From positions 1-28,825 of the forward strand of contig CAYUTF010000018.1 of NCBI GenBank assembly GCA_964447495.1: DNA of 28,825 bases, read 5' to 3'. The notes below the pieces were generated by a model. That model did no database searches. It saw only the letters and a program-made list of their open reading frames with translations, and was not told where the DNA came from. Source of the stretch: an uncultured archaeon. GTDB taxonomy: Archaea; Asgardarchaeota; Lokiarchaeia; Sigyniarchaeales; SOKP01. Made by a program: the position numbers and the translations under genes. Positions within the stretch are counted from its first letter, which is position 1, and each line of letters starts with the position of its first letter. Positions 5,696 to 28,825 of the stretch are shown piece by piece.

Positions 5696-7204
5696 ATGTT
5701 AAGGCAGCTTCATATTTTTTATAAAAAAGAGATAGTTTTCACTCATACCTATGCAATGGCGATTGGAGATGAGGAATTAAGTAATGTAAAAAAAGTTCTT
5801 AGTTCCTATTTGGAAATGCCAATGCCTGGTAAAACATTCCAACACCCCGGTTCTAATTTTCAAATATTCCATCGAAGTAGTAGCAATTTTCTCTTTTTAT
5901 TTATTACAGATTTAATAGATAACAAAGACTATATTGAAAATATACTTATTAGAATAATCGACAAATTTAGATCTCTTTTTCCTGAGTTAGAGTCTACGGA
6001 GAAATCTACATTATATAATGATGAAATAATAGGCTTTTTAAATCAACTACAACATAATATGCACTCCAAAATTGCAATTATGGGGCCATTTAACTCTGGA
6101 AAGACATTTCTTTATAATATGCTTAAAGATAATGAAGAACGTGAAATTGCCGATTTTGCTAAAGCAGCAATTTTTAATATAAATGAATTAAGTTTTGATT
6201 TATGGGATTTTCAATTAGCTGAAAACTTTCATGGTTTATGGGGCAAATTTATAAAGGGCTCCGACTTAATTTTACTTCTATTTGATGTTTCTAACTACAA
6301 TTTAAAAGTAATCGAACATTTCTTGCAATTACATAAACAAGAAAGCAATCTTTCAAAATTATTAATAATAGGTAATAAAGTAGATTTAGTTAATGAAGAA
6401 GAAATAAAGTTAAGTAAAAATCTACTTAATATTGGCGAATTTAAAAAAATTTCATTAAAAAAATCTGATGCTAAGCAGCAAATATTGGAGCTTATCTCAT
6501 TATCATTAGGTTTAAAAAAGAGCTTACCAGATAACTTTAATGCGATAATTAAAGAAGCTGAAAAATATGAAATTGATGAGAATTATGTTTTAGCTATATC
6601 AAAATATAAAGAGCTCATAAATATATGTAATAAATATCAAGACTTTTTATATATCTCCGAATTTAAGGAAAAATTACAAAATCTTTATAATAAGATTGAA
6701 AACTTTAAGAAATCACGACGCAAAGACGAAAGCAAACTTAAATTCGAGATTCCAGGTCAAATTAAGTTTCACAGTAAAATTAGTGTAAGTCCACTTCCAG
6801 CTGAAAGTAAGCAAGATTTAATAAAACCAGTACCTCCCAAAAAAATTTTCATTGAAATGCCCCTTGAGGGAAAATATGAAAAGAAAAAAGTAGAAAAACT
6901 AACGCTATTTACACAAGAGGATAAAGAAGTAGCTTCAAAAAAAGACTTCTTAAAATTTGAAGATATTAATTTAGATTTAACATCGAAAACTATTGAAGAA
7001 ACGGATTTACAAATAGAAAAAGAATTTACACCTTCAGATTTTCCTCAAAAACTTCAGGCTTTAATTGAAAACTATGGAAGCTCACTTAGTTTAAAATTAT
7101 GTGAGCATCTTATAAATGAGTTAAAAACAACACTCGCTCGACCTTTAACAACCAATGACCTAGAAACGGCAGCTGAAATATTTGTTAACCAAGAAAATTT
7201 TTAG
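5696..7204 (+). CDS. Longin-like domain + Arf/Rab-like small GTPase domain + helical (MIT/TPR-like) domain fusion
   Basis: N-terminal MLRQLHIF...FLFLFITDLIDN...IIDKF is longin-like. GTPase motifs: G1 GPFNSGKT, degenerate G3 LWDFQLA, G4 NKVD, G5 ISLK. These are followed by a helical hairpin (AEKYEIDENYVLAISKYKELI). Confidence 0.75.
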   Translation: MLRQLHIFYKKEIVFTHTYAMAIGDEELSNVKKVLSSYLEMPMPGKTFQHPGSNFQIFHRSSSNFLFLFITDLIDNKDYIENILIRIIDKFRSLFPELESTEKSTLYNDEIIGFLNQLQHNMHSKIAIMGPFNSGKTFLYNMLKDNEEREIADFAKAAIFNINELSFDLWDFQLAENFHGLWGKFIKGSDLILLLFDVSNYNLKVIEHFLQLHKQESNLSKLLIIGNKVDLVNEEEIKLSKNLLNIGEFKKISLKKSDAKQQILELISLSLGLKKSLPDNFNAIIKEAEKYEIDENYVLAISKYKELINICNKYQDFLYISEFKEKLQNLYNKIENFKKSRRKDESKLKFEIPGQIKFHSKISVSPLPAESKQDLIKPVPPKKIFIEMPLEGKYEKKKVEKLTLFTQEDKEVASKKDFLKFEDINLDLTSKTIEETDLQIEKEFTPSDFPQKLQALIENYGSSLSLKLCEHLINELKTTLARPLTTNDLETAAEIFVNQENF

Positions 7205-12682: not shown

Positions 12683-13654
12683 ATGATTGTTTCAGAAATT
12701 AATCTAAAAATGGCAATACTAGGGTATTGGAATTCTGGTAAAACCTCAATAGTGAACCTATATCTTGATAATAATTTTCCAAATATTTATATCCCTACAA
12801 TCGGCTCTAATATAGTCCGAAAAGAATATCAATTAGATAAATACCAAATTAGAATTAATATATGGGATATTGGAGGTCAAAAAAGCTTCAATCCATTGAA
12901 TCCTGCTTATTTTAGTAATTTAGATATTGTTTTTCTTGTATTTGATTTATCTAATCCAAAAGAAACCCTCTCTGAATTAAAGAAAACGTATTTAAAAACA
13001 TTAGATCAACTATCTCCCTATTCAATCCGATTTTTAATAGGTAATAAATCAGATTTAGTTAAACCTGAAAATTCTGAAATTTTACTCAACAGTATTCGTC
13101 AATATGGAATCAATGATATGCCAATTATATTTGTCTCTGCAAAAACCCAAGATAACCTTTCTGAAGCATTTGAGTTAATAGTATATGAGTTTTTAAAAAA
13201 AATAGAAAAGAAAAGTAAATCAAGACAAATTCAAGGGATAAGTGAAGAATTTTTACTTATTCTAAGGAAGAATGAGAAGGATTTATATAGTTTACTCATA
13301 AATATAGAAGATATTGATTCTAACAGTTTACAACAAAAAATTACTCCTCAAATTGTCAAAAAGGTCATTAAGCAAGTCGAACAAAGAGAAAAAATTAAAA
13401 TAGAAGAGGAAGCAAATATAACTTTTCCAGAAGAATTCTTTATTTACGATAAAATTAAAACAAATGTAATTAAGCTGTTCAATAACAATTTAAATTCAGT
13501 TCAAGATTTAATCTTAAGTTTAAAAATTACTCCTATAGATTATTTAATAAATAAAATTGATTTAGTAAATAATGAACTAAATGGATTTAAAGATGATTTT
13601 GAAACCAAACTAAATTCTCTTTTTAATATAAGAAATACAGTTGAAAAAGAATAG
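12683..13654 (+). CDS. Rab-like small GTPase with C-terminal helical extension
   Basis: G1 GYWNSGKTS, G2 YIPTIG, G3 WDIGGQ, G4 NKSD, G5 SAK, followed by a ~150 aa helical tail. Confidence 0.88.
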   Translation: MIVSEINLKMAILGYWNSGKTSIVNLYLDNNFPNIYIPTIGSNIVRKEYQLDKYQIRINIWDIGGQKSFNPLNPAYFSNLDIVFLVFDLSNPKETLSELKKTYLKTLDQLSPYSIRFLIGNKSDLVKPENSEILLNSIRQYGINDMPIIFVSAKTQDNLSEAFELIVYEFLKKIEKKSKSRQIQGISEEFLLILRKNEKDLYSLLINIEDIDSNSLQQKITPQIVKKVIKQVEQREKIKIEEEANITFPEEFFIYDKIKTNVIKLFNNNLNSVQDLILSLKITPIDYLINKIDLVNNELNGFKDDFETKLNSLFNIRNTVEKE

Positions 13655-25552: not shown

Positions 25553-25933
25553 TTATTCCATTTTAAATCGATATTTGTTATATGCCGCTCTTGTAAGTCC
25601 AACGTAATTATCTGAAATTTTGTAATGTAATTTTCCATTAAATACTTTTTTCTCAACATAATCATTTTTTAGGGAGTGATTTAATGAACTTACCATGGTT
25701 CCAAGTGTAACAGCACCCATATATTTCTGATTTTTTTTCGTAATTCGTATTAACTCTAATTCAGAGTGCCAATTTCCATCTAACAAGCCCATTAAGATTC
25801 CATTTTTTACAGGTGTCTTAATATCTTTAATTTTATTAAACAATTGCGAATAATCTGGCTTATAATATTTCTTTAGTAACTTAGTTTGGTAAAAATCACT
25901 ATTTTCTGGAGGTTCCATATATTTTCTCACCAC
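25553..25933 (-). CDS. Hypothetical protein, probable winged-helix fold
   Basis: ILMGLLDGNWHSELELIR...AVTLGTMVSSL...YVEKKVFNGKLHYKI fits a wHTH pattern. The start is GTG 25933 or ATG 25918. Confidence 0.6.
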   Translation of the reverse strand: MVRKYMEPPENSDFYQTKLLKKYYKPDYSQLFNKIKDIKTPVKNGILMGLLDGNWHSELELIRITKKNQKYMGAVTLGTMVSSLNHSLKNDYVEKKVFNGKLHYKISDNYVGLTRAAYNKYRFKME

Positions 25934-26051: not shown

Positions 26052-27167
26052 TTATAATAATCCTTCTGGAACTCCTTCGCGGTAATATTGCGCACGTGTG
26101 ATCCAGTTTTTAGAAAATTCAGGAATCATGGCTAAAATGGAACCACCGACCCATACAGAAAATACTCTTTCCCGTGGTGCTATGATCTTAATCGTTTGGT
26201 TTTTTTTCTTTCTTTTGACCAATTCTAATTCCAATTCTTGATACATTCTTGACTTTATATTTTGGAACATAGAGGAGCCTCCTGAAAGAAAAATATTATT
26301 CAGTAATTCGGGACGTATATCCAAATCACACATTTCAATTACATCTAATATTGCCTCTGGTAAAGGAGTTTCCTCTAATTCCAAAGAAGGATTGAATAAT
26401 AATTCTGGTACTTGAAATCGTTCTTTACTTAATGTAATAGTCGATCCATCTGGTAATGAATACGGTTTTTCGTATTGTTCTACCCTTTTCATATCTTCTT
26501 TATAATCTAAGGATACAAAACATGCTTTTTCTTTTAAAGCCCTCACCAATTCCCTTCTTATGGATGAATCTGCGGAATATCCAGTTTCACCTAAAATTTT
26601 TTCCATATATCGAGTAAGGGTTCTTCCACCTATTTCTAAATATTTGATTGCATGATCTAACTTATAACCTTCATAAATAGGAACGATTCTAGTAATGCTG
26701 TCTCCAATTTCAATCACTAAACCCGTTTGAAATCCTCCAGAGTAAAGTGTGAGCATAGAATCTAATACGGGATAAAAGGCCATACACTGATAATGCTCTA
26801 AAAATAATTCAAATAATTTTTCTAGATCTTTCCGTGGAAATAATGGGTGAGTTGCAAATAAAACATTCACTAAACTTGGGTCTACTCTCAAATTATAAAA
26901 AATATAATCGATTATTTTTTCAAAATAACCCCAATCTTGGATAATTCCCTTCTCAATGGGGTAAAATATTTTATAAAGCCCTAAAGATTGAATCTCGTCT
27001 CCGATGAAATACTCATCTTTTTTTATTCCACCATAATCAAAATCAATTTGCTGGTATTTAGTTTGTCCAACAATAGTGAAAAACACTAGACTAGGATTAT
27101 CTTCTCCTGCGAACCCACATTTGGTTGCAAATTGCCCAATATCAAGTACCACAGTTAGATTTGCCAT
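26052..27167 (-). CDS. Actin-family protein (divergent Asgard actin-related protein)
   Basis: Colinear with actin over its full length: KCGFAGED.P, YPIEKG, VPIYEGY, KEKACFV, LPDG, ERF.VPE.LF.P, LSGGSSM, IKIIAP.ER..SVW.GGSILA. Confidence 0.95.
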   Translation of the reverse strand: MANLTVVLDIGQFATKCGFAGEDNPSLVFFTIVGQTKYQQIDFDYGGIKKDEYFIGDEIQSLGLYKIFYPIEKGIIQDWGYFEKIIDYIFYNLRVDPSLVNVLFATHPLFPRKDLEKLFELFLEHYQCMAFYPVLDSMLTLYSGGFQTGLVIEIGDSITRIVPIYEGYKLDHAIKYLEIGGRTLTRYMEKILGETGYSADSSIRRELVRALKEKACFVSLDYKEDMKRVEQYEKPYSLPDGSTITLSKERFQVPELLFNPSLELEETPLPEAILDVIEMCDLDIRPELLNNIFLSGGSSMFQNIKSRMYQELELELVKRKKKNQTIKIIAPRERVFSVWVGGSILAMIPEFSKNWITRAQYYREGVPEGLL

Positions 27168-27235: not shown

Positions 27236-27985
27236 TTATACTAATAATATTTTTAGAGGTGTATAGGTTGTTTCTGGAATGAAAGATTCCCCATATGAAG
27301 AATCAATTTCATTACCTCGCAAAATTGCAGTATCTTCTGCCCAGTCTAATACTCTCTCTAAAACTTCTTTTTGAGAAAGATATACTTGCGAAAATATCTC
27401 TTTCTTTCTTTTCCAATACTTCTCAATATCAACCACTACAAATACAGAGCCTTCAATATATTGAAATTTACAAGAAGGAGATTCATAATAATAGACTCCA
27501 AGAGGTTTCCAATTTCGCTCATGACCACCATAGGCCTTACCAGTAGAACAATGATAAATCGCTTCTCGCGTAATAAGGGATAAATTTCGATGCACACGAT
27601 GAAAATCAGAAAAATGAGGTATTAGAATAATATGGGGCTTATTGTCTCGAATTAAATTTGTAATATGAGATATTTTTTCGCGTGTAATTTGCATCTGAGT
27701 GTAGTTTAATTCTAAGATTTTACAATTTAAGATCTTTTGTATCGTATTTAGTTCATTTTGGCGTTGTTCCAAAATCTGCTCTCTTTGCATCGTTTTTGCA
27801 TATCCTCCAAGCCCCGTAGTAGCTACAACTATAGTAATTTCTGAACCTAAATCCTGATATTTTAATAAAGTCCCACCACAAGAAATAATCTCATCATCAG
27901 GATGCCCTGCAAATACCATTATCCTTTTTGGAACTATAATTGGAAAATCATTATCATAAATGAGATATTCTTTTTTTTCCATCAA
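27236..27985 (-). CDS. PIG-L/LmbE-family N-acetylglucosaminyl deacetylase
   Basis: AGHPDDE..CGGTL, VVATTG..G, R..E and DFHRVH motifs. Confidence 0.88.
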   Translation of the reverse strand: MMEKKEYLIYDNDFPIIVPKRIMVFAGHPDDEIISCGGTLLKYQDLGSEITIVVATTGLGGYAKTMQREQILEQRQNELNTIQKILNCKILELNYTQMQITREKISHITNLIRDNKPHIILIPHFSDFHRVHRNLSLITREAIYHCSTGKAYGGHERNWKPLGVYYYESPSCKFQYIEGSVFVVVDIEKYWKRKKEIFSQVYLSQKEVLERVLDWAEDTAILRGNEIDSSYGESFIPETTYTPLKILLV

Positions 27986-28120: not shown

Positions 28121-28825
28121 TTATTCTCCTCTCATAATCTTTTTCAAACGATTTAATTCTTCTAACATTTCGTCTCTTAGAGAACTTAATCCTCCTCCTG
28201 GTTTTGGAGCGGCCATTGATCCGGGAGGACTTGGAACTGGTGCTGCGGGAGCACTTCCAGGAGGTCTTGGAGCACCACCTACAGGAGGTGCAGTAGGAGG
28301 CGCTGAGGGCGGTTTAGGGCGTTTCGCAAAAGTTGGAGCTTTTACAACTCCTCCACTTGGAGCTTGAGGTGGAGCGCTCGTACCTGGAGCTGGAGGTAAT
28401 TTTGGTGCTGGTGGAAGATTTCCCCTCGTTGGAGGTCCACTTATAGGTGCTTTTAGTGGGCCACTGCTAAGCGGAGCCTTAGGAGGTCCGGCACTAAGAG
28501 GTTTGGGTAAGCTAGTAGCTGGTGCAGCGGGTGTGGGACTCAATGCTGCTGAAGTAGGGGCAGATGCAGGAGCTTCAACACTCCCACTCAATAGATTAAA
28601 TAGAGTACTTGCTGCTGCCGTTTTCGCAGAAGAAGATGCTGCGGGTCTTGCAATTTGTTTAGAGGAGGTACTTACGGTTAATACTTCTGGTTCAACAGAT
28701 ACCTCTTTTAAATCTTTTAATGCTTTATTCAAAGATTTAATAAAATCGTTTATTCCTTTAACAGTATCTTCAAGGTCATCGGATAAAGAAGTTAATCCTT
28801 TTTTCATAAAATTAATGACGCGTTC
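28121..28825 (-). CDS. Proline-rich protein with coiled-coil N-terminal part and C-terminal WH2-like helix (5' end probably outside the window)
   Basis: The frame stays open to the window edge (ERVINF-MKKGL...). It has a coiled-coil, a long Pro/Ala-rich region and the C-terminus SLRDEMLEELNRLKKIMRGE. Confidence 0.8.
   Translation of the reverse strand, partial: ERVINFMKKGLTSLSDDLEDTVKGINDFIKSLNKALKDLKEVSVEPEVLTVSTSSKQIARPAASSSAKTAAASTLFNLLSGSVEAPASAPTSAALSPTPAAPATSLPKPLSAGPPKAPLSSGPLKAPISGPPTRGNLPPAPKLPPAPGTSAPPQAPSGGVVKAPTFAKRPKPPSAPPTAPPVGGAPRPPGSAPAAPVPSPPGSMAAPKPGGGLSSLRDEMLEELNRLKKIMRGE

Follow-up and report, generated by a model that had tools for sequence, protein, structure and literature searches.

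A near-universal Asgard protein family with a proline-rich arm ends in an almost invariant helix, a candidate docking peptide for an actin-family partner

No closer relatives of eukaryotes are known than the Asgard archaea. They build protrusions supported by actin, yet to our knowledge no nucleator, elongation factor, or linker between membrane and actin has been reported from them. A 28,825-nucleotide stretch of DNA from an uncultured Lokiarchaeial archaeon of the order Sigyniarchaeales (assembly GCA_964447495.1, contig CAYUTF010000018.1), hereafter the window, raises the question of whether such a part might be encoded at its far end. On the minus strand, positions 28121 to 28180 translate to LRDEMLEELNRLKKIMRGE*, the end of a proline-rich protein, just as a preliminary description of the sequence had read them; the preceding codons, at 28181 to 28198, encode GGGLSS. 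That description had likened the tail to a WH2 actin-binding motif or, alternatively, to an oligomerizing helix of the VASP tetramerization type, and had gathered from either a WASP/VASP-like architecture. The coding sequence of the protein, here called the arm protein, spans 28121 to 28825 on the minus strand (stop codon at 28121 to 28123, 5' end outside the window), and the list of open reading frames (ORFs) holds a 228-codon ATG ORF at 28121 to 28807, whose residue numbering is used below. With 43 prolines, 33 alanines, and 29 serines in 228 residues, and 32% proline in residues 76 to 205, the protein is indeed proline rich, but its longest proline run is two, so that the earlier term “polyproline protein” does not apply. 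What, then, is this tail, how widespread is it, and what might it bind?

As to distribution, the arm protein is a member of an undescribed family that is nearly pan-Asgard, Asgard-specific, and usually single copy. A whole-protein profile detected the family in 36 of the 41 genomes sampled from the order and in 140 of 301 from the phylum, while a search of 1.84 billion proteins gave just 67 cluster representatives at an E value of 1e-3 or better. The 28-position tail-only profile A3, built from 26 diverse sequences, matched 257 of the 301 phylum genomes and 84 of the 90 high-quality ones, with no match in archaeal families f21 (0/5) and f24 (0/7). The motif is usually present once per genome, in ORFs of about 200 to 360 amino acids (about 560 in one family). 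Named relatives are labeled Lokiarchaeota, Promethearchaeota, Odinarchaeota, or Hermodarchaeota and, among the matches listed, all named ones but one are called hypothetical. Of the 206 relatives scoring at E ≤ 1e-3, 120 were listed, and none of those has a Pfam domain; Pfam and NCBIfam scans gave no match above cutoff for the arm protein, for its membrane-anchored relatives, or for the neighboring proteins p126 and p88 described below. A CCDC53/WASH match on one relative (E value of 0.012; 16.5 bits against a cutoff of 24.6) was dismissed as coiled-coil noise. A literature search found no description of this proline-arm family.

The conserved tail motif, LSSLRDEMLEELNRLKKIMRG, comprises residues 207 to 227 (28127 to 28189, minus strand), as judged from column counts in alignments A1 and A3. 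Among 18 aligned sequences, with overall identities to the arm protein down to 38%, 14 tail positions are invariant (L210, R211, E213, M214, L215, E217, L218, R220, L221, K222, K223, I224, M225, and G227), and the phylum consensus reads [ILV]-S-x-L-R-x-E-M-L-x-E-L-x-R-L-K-x-[ILF]-M. The rest of the protein is much less conserved. An AlphaFold2 model built from an 18-sequence alignment predicts one continuous alpha-helix for residues 208 to 225 (28133 to 28186; block pLDDT values of 91 and 87), with LKKI inside it at 28136 to 28147. Only A3 columns 11, 15, 18, and 22 are variable, and since these lie on a single stripe of the helix, about 220° of its surface is constrained; the twelve other helix positions are held constant throughout the phylum, among them an invariant methionine, two glutamates, and an arginine and a lysine found in 25 of the 26 sequences. 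M214 never changes, the next position is leucine (21 sequences) or methionine (5), and L218 is leucine in 21, isoleucine in 3, and methionine in 2. The leucine of LKK is kept in 23 sequences and the first lysine in 25, with lysine (14) or arginine (2) at the second basic position; the fourth position of the motif holds I (13), L (7), F (4), Y (1), or M (1), never T or V, and a conserved M, F, or I comes next. In all 26 sequences, the motif lies 1 to 6 residues before the stop codon, behind a disordered, proline-rich arm.

The letters LKKI would mean little by themselves in so AT-rich a proteome: LKK[TVI] is common by chance, occurring 271 times in 257 of the genome's 4411 ORFs of at least 100 amino acids, and the extended pattern [LIMV][LIMV]xx[LIMV]-x(2,3)-LKK[TVI] occurs 10 times in the same set. 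It is the conservation of the tail, rather than the pattern alone, that exceeds chance. Neither the tail nor its profile found a significant sequence match in the PDB, an ESM Atlas look-up of the tail yielded no usable match, and a search on the tail's words, which is weak evidence, scored no protein of 400 to 2000 amino acids.

Is this helix a WH2 motif? WH2 motifs consist of a short N-terminal amphipathic helix with an LLxxI-type core, followed by a helix-breaking linker and an extended LKK[T/V]. The tail resembles the WH2 of thymosin-beta4 and of the WASP V region in its amphipathic helix, in its hydrophobic-hydrophobic-x-x-hydrophobic core (MLEEL, with M214-L215-x-x-L218 as the WH2-type core) followed by L-K-K-hydrophobic, and in its adjacent proline-rich sequence; multicopy variants of the tail motif likewise have proline-rich linkers. 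It differs in having no glycine- or proline-bearing linker: in 26 of 26 sequences, the MLxEL core and LK are separated by just two residues (x-R), neither of them G or P, and in the model, made for the free protein alone, LKKI falls within the single helix at a pLDDT of about 90. The WH2 signature given in the available text of PMC9433394 is a leucine, two basic residues, and a threonine or valine, L-[KR]-[KRH]-[TV]; in the tail, the second basic residue is found in 16 of 26 sequences and the final T or V in none, I/L/F/Y/M and then M/F/I standing there instead. The WH2-like motifs described in Asgard archaea in what is accessible of PMC9433394 and bioRxiv 10.1101/2025.11.30.690169 are LKKT-like stretches between gelsolin domains.

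Profile searches agree with this pattern. Neither Pfam WH2 (PF02205) nor VASP_tetra (PF08776) matched the whole protein at E ≤ 10, and the last 36 residues and the tails of two relatives matched no Pfam family at that threshold. Genome scans at E ≤ 10 gave two weak six-frame matches for PF02205 (contigs C8 and C124) and five weak matches elsewhere for PF08776, none of them at the arm locus. Canonical membership in either family, as proposed in the preliminary description, was therefore rejected on the profile searches and the motif conservation pattern, and in the case of VASP_tetra the helix is also only 18 residues long against about 36 profile positions. LKK, whose conservation among homologs the description had named as a check, is conserved in its leucine and first lysine but not in its second lysine, and because those two residues are kept, the motif cannot be said to be lost.

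The broader comparison to WASP and VASP fares similarly. Ena/VASP proteins are composed of EVH1, a proline-rich region, and EVH2 with a C-terminal tetramerization coil. The arm protein shares with them the combination of a placing or oligomerizing element, a proline-rich middle, and short C-terminal helices, but its parts come in another order, and it has no EVH1, no VASP_tetra match, and, in the 228-residue ORF, no run of at least three prolines that might serve as a profilin-type site. Loki and Odin profilins are moreover reported, in the available part of PMC8410842, not to bind VASP polyproline. Taken together, these mismatches leave a WASP/VASP-like reading without its defining parts. What does survive from the preliminary description, in both the alignments and the AlphaFold2 model, is an Asgard archaeal protein in which a proline-rich region is followed, at the C terminus, by an amphipathic helix that is conserved.

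If the tail is not WH2, its setting may say more about it. The arm protein begins with a long amphipathic helix (28703 to 28825, minus strand; residues 2 to 35 helical at a pLDDT of about 90), which continues past the window edge and is homologous to relatives upstream of the annotated ATG. A short conserved helix, AKTAAASTLFNLLSG, follows at residues 61 to 75 (28583 to 28627, minus strand), with A65, A66, L69, and L73 invariant and residues 60 to 73 modeled as helical at modest pLDDT; its core, L-[FWYI]-x-[LF]-L-x-G, is retained in distant soluble-head relatives. Residues 76 to 205 (28193 to 28582, minus strand) form the disordered Pro/Ala/Ser-rich arm, with pLDDT mostly between 42 and 60, GPPKAP-type repeats of varying number, and a length that differs among relatives. 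Within it lie two islands: LPPAPKLPPAP at residues 131 to 141 (28385 to 28417, minus strand), where L131, P132, P135, and P138 vary little or not at all and the local pLDDT climbs to about 70 at LPPAPKLPP, and PTFAKRP at residues 158 to 164 (28316 to 28336, minus strand), retained in family f1 and part of f2 in a 30-sequence alignment. The former is possibly a second short docking site. Along the whole protein, the conserved islands are thus the head helix, A-K-x-x-A-A-S-x-L-F-N-L-L-S-G, LPPAPKLPP, P-x-F-A-K-R-P, and the tail.

The same arm and tail occur on more than one kind of head. Families f1, f2, f4, f6, f7, f16, and f25 have a soluble head, as in the arm protein, and families f9, f11, f17, f19, f20, f26, and f31 have an N-terminal transmembrane helix and a coiled-coil region; arm and tail are common to both architectures. 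The tail also terminates a multipass membrane protein and a zinc-finger protein, and one to three internal copies of its motif are found in Ras-like GTPase proteins and in proteins with a zinc module. Its presence on unrelated heads therefore marks the helix as a portable module. A Lokiarchaeial variant, P0128 (549 amino acids), has an N-terminal transmembrane helix, a TIR domain C-terminal to the tail motif, and LKG in place of LKK.

Conserved residue identities, a C-terminal position behind a long arm, and reuse on unrelated heads are features to be expected in a peptide that docks onto a conserved partner. We thus propose that the head positions the protein, by means of the long amphipathic helix and the short LFNLLSG helix here and of a transmembrane helix plus coiled coil in other lineages, and that a flexible, proline-rich arm of 100 to 170 residues would link it to the almost invariant amphipathic C-terminal helix of 18 to 20 residues. 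Tethered in this way, the helix would serve as a docking peptide whose hydrophobic face (L210, M214, L218, L221, and I224/M225, flanked by conserved E and R/K) enters a groove of the partner. It is tempting to speculate that this is the hydrophobic groove lying between subdomains 1 and 3 of actin, as for the helices of arcadin-2, ParR, and WH2, and that the partner is Lokiactin or the actin paralog encoded nearby, in which case the family would tie actin to wherever the head resides. An actin-family protein is in our judgment the likeliest single partner of such a tethered helix, although the full proposal, docking and partner included, is tentative and falls short of even confidence. The main Lokiactin is 88 to 100% identical across the order, and so frozen an actin would fit an equally frozen ligand.

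A precedent is provided by arcadin-2 and ParR: according to the available text of PMC5173319, a C-terminal helix of 17 residues binds the hydrophobic groove of an archaeal actin. In arcadin-2, the crenactin regulator of Pyrobaculum calidifontis (PDB accession no. 5LY3), and in ParR of ParMRC (PDB accession no. 4A62), the C-terminal helix has been seen in the groove of an actin-family protein, whereas docking of the arm tail is a prediction. The arcadin-2 gene clusters with an actin gene (same source), a likeness that the arm gene shares in f1 only. By contrast, arcadin-2 relies on a tryptophan, which the arm tail does not have, and its description in the available text includes no long proline-rich arm; no sequence similarity between the two tails is shown. 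As far as PMC12050087 and bioRxiv 10.1101/2025.11.30.690169 could be consulted, profilins and gelsolins are the only Asgard actin regulators described so far.

The link to actin is plausible from the gene order of one family and from this analogy. Downstream of the arm gene, all on the minus strand, lie a PIG-L family deacetylase gene (27236 to 27985; Pfam PIG-L, 75.4 bits), an actin paralog of 371 amino acids (26052 to 27167; Pfam Actin, 303.5 bits), and the gene for p126, a 126-amino-acid protein (25553 to 25933). The paralog, one of four actin-family genes in the genome, is 44 to 45% identical to the main Lokiactin, which is encoded on another contig. Other species of the genus provide 20 loci for comparison; the arm gene is followed there by PIG-L, the actin paralog, and p126, with PIG-L present in 20 and actin in 17, the remaining three loci ending before the actin position. 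Seven other genera of family f1 were compared as well, and 10 of their 10 loci retain the arm gene and actin paralog in this order, with p126 adjoining the paralog in 8; in 3 of the 10, PIG-L is absent and the arm gene abuts the actin paralog directly, so PIG-L is dispensable for the arrangement.

Several observations weigh against an actin partner. Outside f1, none of the fetched f2, f4, or membrane-anchored loci shows linkage to actin and the other neighbors are unrelated, so the f1 order may be no more than inherited order; in f2, the actin paralog lies 44 to 100 kb from the arm gene, and the membrane-anchored forms adjoin rpiA and a PIN-ATPase gene. Four of five checked genomes without a motif match nevertheless have actin (f21, 2/2; f24, 1/2; f13, 1/1). 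The WH2 and VASP_tetra profiles, as described above, fail on the tail. Finally, the tail shows a likeness to GCN4 zippers that, at nonsignificant E values of 0.19 to 0.5, favors a coiled coil, and it resembles the MIM1 of the organism's own ESCRT-III.

This last resemblance leads to an alternative in which the tail would be a MIM1-type helix and the LPPAPKLPP island a MIM2-like motif, together docking onto an MIT domain, either in the Vps4 ATPase or in a different MIT protein, and so recruiting or presenting Vps4 at the location of the head, much as tails of the ESCRT-III/IST1 type do. The Vps2/24/46-like ESCRT-III of this genome, encoded beside Vps4, ends in ...ALPTVDPDGKVKELEEELNKLKSRD, and the arm protein in ...LRDEMLEELNRLKKIMRGE. 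The ESCRT-III tail (...KVKELEEELNKLKSRD*) and the arm tail have E-[LM]-x-E-E-L-N-[KR]-L-K in common at the very C terminus, behind a flexible, proline-bearing linker, and among the 4411 ORFs of at least 100 amino acids only these two contain the pattern, although this strict form was derived post hoc, after both sequences had been seen. Ten further families show a looser core, E-hydrophobic-x-x-E-[LI]-x-[KR]-[LI]-[KR], both in their ESCRT-III tails and in the motif. The LPPAPKLPPAP island resembles the proline motif upstream of ESCRT-III tails, and LPxVP-type motifs occur in the ESCRT-III tails of the same genomes. IST1 has such a tail, with a MIM2-plus-MIM1 architecture. Leucine-rich MIM1-like helices and proline-rich MIM2-like motifs have been described in Asgard ESCRT-III (Lu et al. 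2020, PMC7240154, available text).

The statistics behind this likeness are less persuasive. A hidden Markov model (HMM) made from 26 ESCRT-III tails of the order ranked the arm protein third among C-terminal matches in ORFs of at least 100 amino acids, but the score was just 5.0 bits over 7 residues and nonsignificant, and an ungapped profile-profile comparison gave a p value of about 0.10 against column-permuted controls, with a rank of 154 among 4371 C termini. The arm motif also extends past the ESCRT-III tails on both sides, by a conserved L-R upstream and [ILF]-M downstream, and within the same genomes it is far more conserved than they are. Its head is not an ESCRT-III core, and neither Snf7 nor any other Pfam family matched the arm protein. 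Both Snf7 genes of the genome map to contigs other than this one, and no fetched locus places the arm gene in an ESCRT cluster. Family f24 has ESCRT-III in both genomes checked yet no match to the motif profile. In the five motif-less genomes, ESCRT-III was found in three (f24, 2/2; f13, 1/1) and in neither of the two f21 genomes, which are 81 to 83% complete; set beside the actin counts given above, these phyletic patterns are uninformative between actin and ESCRT. We consider recruitment of Vps4 improbable, while retaining it as a specific alternative.

Another possibility is that the tail is a short coiled-coil module for self-association or for pairing with other motif carriers, a variant of the VASP tetramerization idea. 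Heptads can be assigned with M214, L218, L221, and M225 at d/a/d/a, hydrophobic e/g residues L215 and I224, and a possible g-e' pair, E217/K222; the closest solved sequences, weak as the matches are (E values of 0.19 to 0.5), are the last heptads of GCN4-type zippers, and some proteins carry the motif two or three times. The helix offers only about 2.5 heptads (18 residues), which is short for a stable oligomer when compared with the 36 positions of the VASP_tetra profile, a profile that itself does not match the tail. Coiled coils, moreover, usually keep a heptad pattern rather than residue identity, whereas in the tail the residues M, E, E, R, and K themselves stay the same throughout the phylum. 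Since most genomes hold a single motif copy and the long N-terminal helix is the more obvious oligomerization element, we regard a coiled-coil role of the tail as distinctly improbable.

The motif-bearing GTPase fusions point elsewhere, namely, to Asgard small-GTPase machinery (a Ras/Arf-like GTPase, the zinc module, or a roadblock-like regulator) or to another conserved protein so far unsuspected. In P0002 and P0162, a Ras/Roc GTPase, polyproline, the motif, and a CxxC...CC zinc module are fused; P0163, P0166, and P0176 combine three motifs with the same zinc module and a C-terminal domain. The genome under study itself encodes a GTPase-zinc module protein as well as a small protein in which a degenerate motif (ALLKNEMLLELNNLKEII) directly precedes the zinc module. 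The arm gene has a small-GTPase gene as its neighbor here as well as in genus g5 and family f31, and the available text of bioRxiv 10.1101/2025.11.30.690169 reports that an Arf GTPase coprecipitated with Lokiactin in L. ossiferum. On the other side, the GTPase neighbor seen here is specific to this genome, and because Asgard genomes encode so many small GTPases, the two genes probably adjoin by chance; where the helix accompanies a zinc module, it may belong to the structure of that domain instead of acting as a ligand. Docking to this machinery or to such an unsuspected protein is thus doubtful, though a possibility to be taken seriously.

The zinc module is itself worth recording. It spans about 85 residues (CPxCG ... 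GIPCCxCFK), has no Pfam match, and has as fusion partners Ras-like GTPases, one to three tail motifs, and sometimes a C-terminal domain of about 130 residues. Its carriers are two ORFs of this genome (contig C62, from 73, plus strand, 280 amino acids; contig C2, at 113401, minus strand, 155 amino acids) and proteins P0002, P0162, P0163, P0166, P0176, and P0178.

The GTPase gene next to the arm gene lies just past the window (L001:2463-3683, plus strand) and is divergent to it; it encodes a 406-amino-acid Gtr1/RagA/Arf-like GTPase with an N-terminal extension of 115 residues. As a conserved neighbor it was rejected, there being no match in any other fetched locus, including the 20 genus loci. 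In this genome, it occupies the position usually taken by an 88-residue ORF, p88 (e.g., L032:2400-2663, minus strand), which adjoins the arm gene in 16 of the 20 genus loci and in 14 of the 41 loci examined from f1, f6, f16, and f25, the two genes there being divergent, tandem, or convergent; the sole match to p88 here is a remnant with four stop codons (contig C23:11739-11997).

Does p88 belong to the tail or to the head? Its profile matches 105 of the 301 phylum genomes, among them 62 of 68 in f1, 6 of 7 in f2, 4 of 4 in f7, 16 of 19 in f16, and 3 of 3 in f25. In the membrane-anchored families, it matched 3 of 76 genomes in f11 and none in f9 (0/28), f26 (0/21), f31 (0/11), f17, f19, or f20. 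In other words, p88 accompanies the soluble head, not the tail, which makes it unlikely as the universal receptor of the helix, a role for which it had been considered; instead, p88 may serve the head, perhaps in place of a membrane anchor. An ESM Atlas look-up of p88 returned only its own Promethearchaeota cluster (0.88).

Membrane-anchored forms keep neighbors of their own. Across several Asgard families, they are steadily flanked by the gene for ribose-5-phosphate isomerase A (rpiA), and most of these loci also adjoin a gene for a PIN plus PilT-like ATPase (plus KH), as seen in loci L074, L075, L078, L079, L080, L083, L085, L088, and L089.

The p126 protein downstream of the actin paralog is modeled by AlphaFold2 (pLDDT of 76.5) with a winged helix-turn-helix-like fold. 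Its best Foldseek matches are winged helix-turn-helix proteins of the MarR/ArsR/PadR type, with weak E values of 4.5e-3 to 2e-2 and TM scores of 0.5 to 0.6, and the weak matches include a plasmid centromere-binding protein and TubR. The candidate identities of profilin and gelsolin were rejected, since the fold search led to the winged helix-turn-helix. By analogy, an actin-like gene next to one for a small, putatively DNA-binding protein recalls segregation pairs of the ParM/ParR type. In two loci of genus g16, p126 is duplicated in tandem.

The 5' end of the arm gene deserves a comment, as the annotated ATG at 28807 is internal, with the coding sequence going on through 28808 to 28825 and past the window edge (L001:2185-2302). 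In all 20 genus loci, conserved codons, L/M-V-S-K-E-Q/Y-K-K-x-E-R-V-x-N-F, reach 15 codons upstream of this ATG, and a matching N-terminal extension is present in families f2 and f4; because conserved coding continues past the ATG, the window must cut the 5' end of the gene. The upstream start codon in the genus loci is TTG in 19 of 20 and ATG in one, preceded by an in-frame stop or by an SD-like AGAGGA/GGAGGA box. Judging from these relatives, the true start would be a TTG about 15 codons past the window edge, a region in which the genome's own sequence is masked (N). The arm gene has a GC content of 0.46, against 0.285 for the window, owing to its Pro/Ala/Gly codons. A long ORF on the opposite strand (28503 to 28823, plus strand; 107 amino acids, open at its 3' end) overlaps this GC-rich arm and could mislead gene callers. 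Elsewhere, the AT-rich window carries Ras/Arf-type GTPases, a PAS histidine kinase, a topoisomerase, and other ordinary genes; two of its small-GTPase genes encode long extensions, at 5696 to 7204 (plus strand; 502 amino acids, Arf/Roc-like) and 12683 to 13654 (plus strand; 323 amino acids, Ras-like).

What would the family mean for Asgard biology? A near-universal, frozen docking helix on a long arm, found in soluble and membrane-anchored forms and reused with GTPases, is a candidate for a missing actin part or for a new route of Vps4 recruitment. The family is experimentally tractable and cheap to test, a 22-residue peptide being enough for a first pull-down. In its most far-reaching form, which we think unlikely but consequential, the family would be the missing link between Asgard actin and membranes or signaling sites, its tail binding the barbed-end groove of Lokiactin as a compressed, helix-only counterpart of WH2, arcadin-2, and ParR. 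The arm would then provide flexible reach and, in some lineages, a profilin site; the membrane anchor, or the soluble helix together with p88, would fix the site; and where several motifs are joined to a Ras-like GTPase, the protein would be an actin assembly factor under GTPase control. Were this so, a logic like that of WASP and formins would predate eukaryogenesis.

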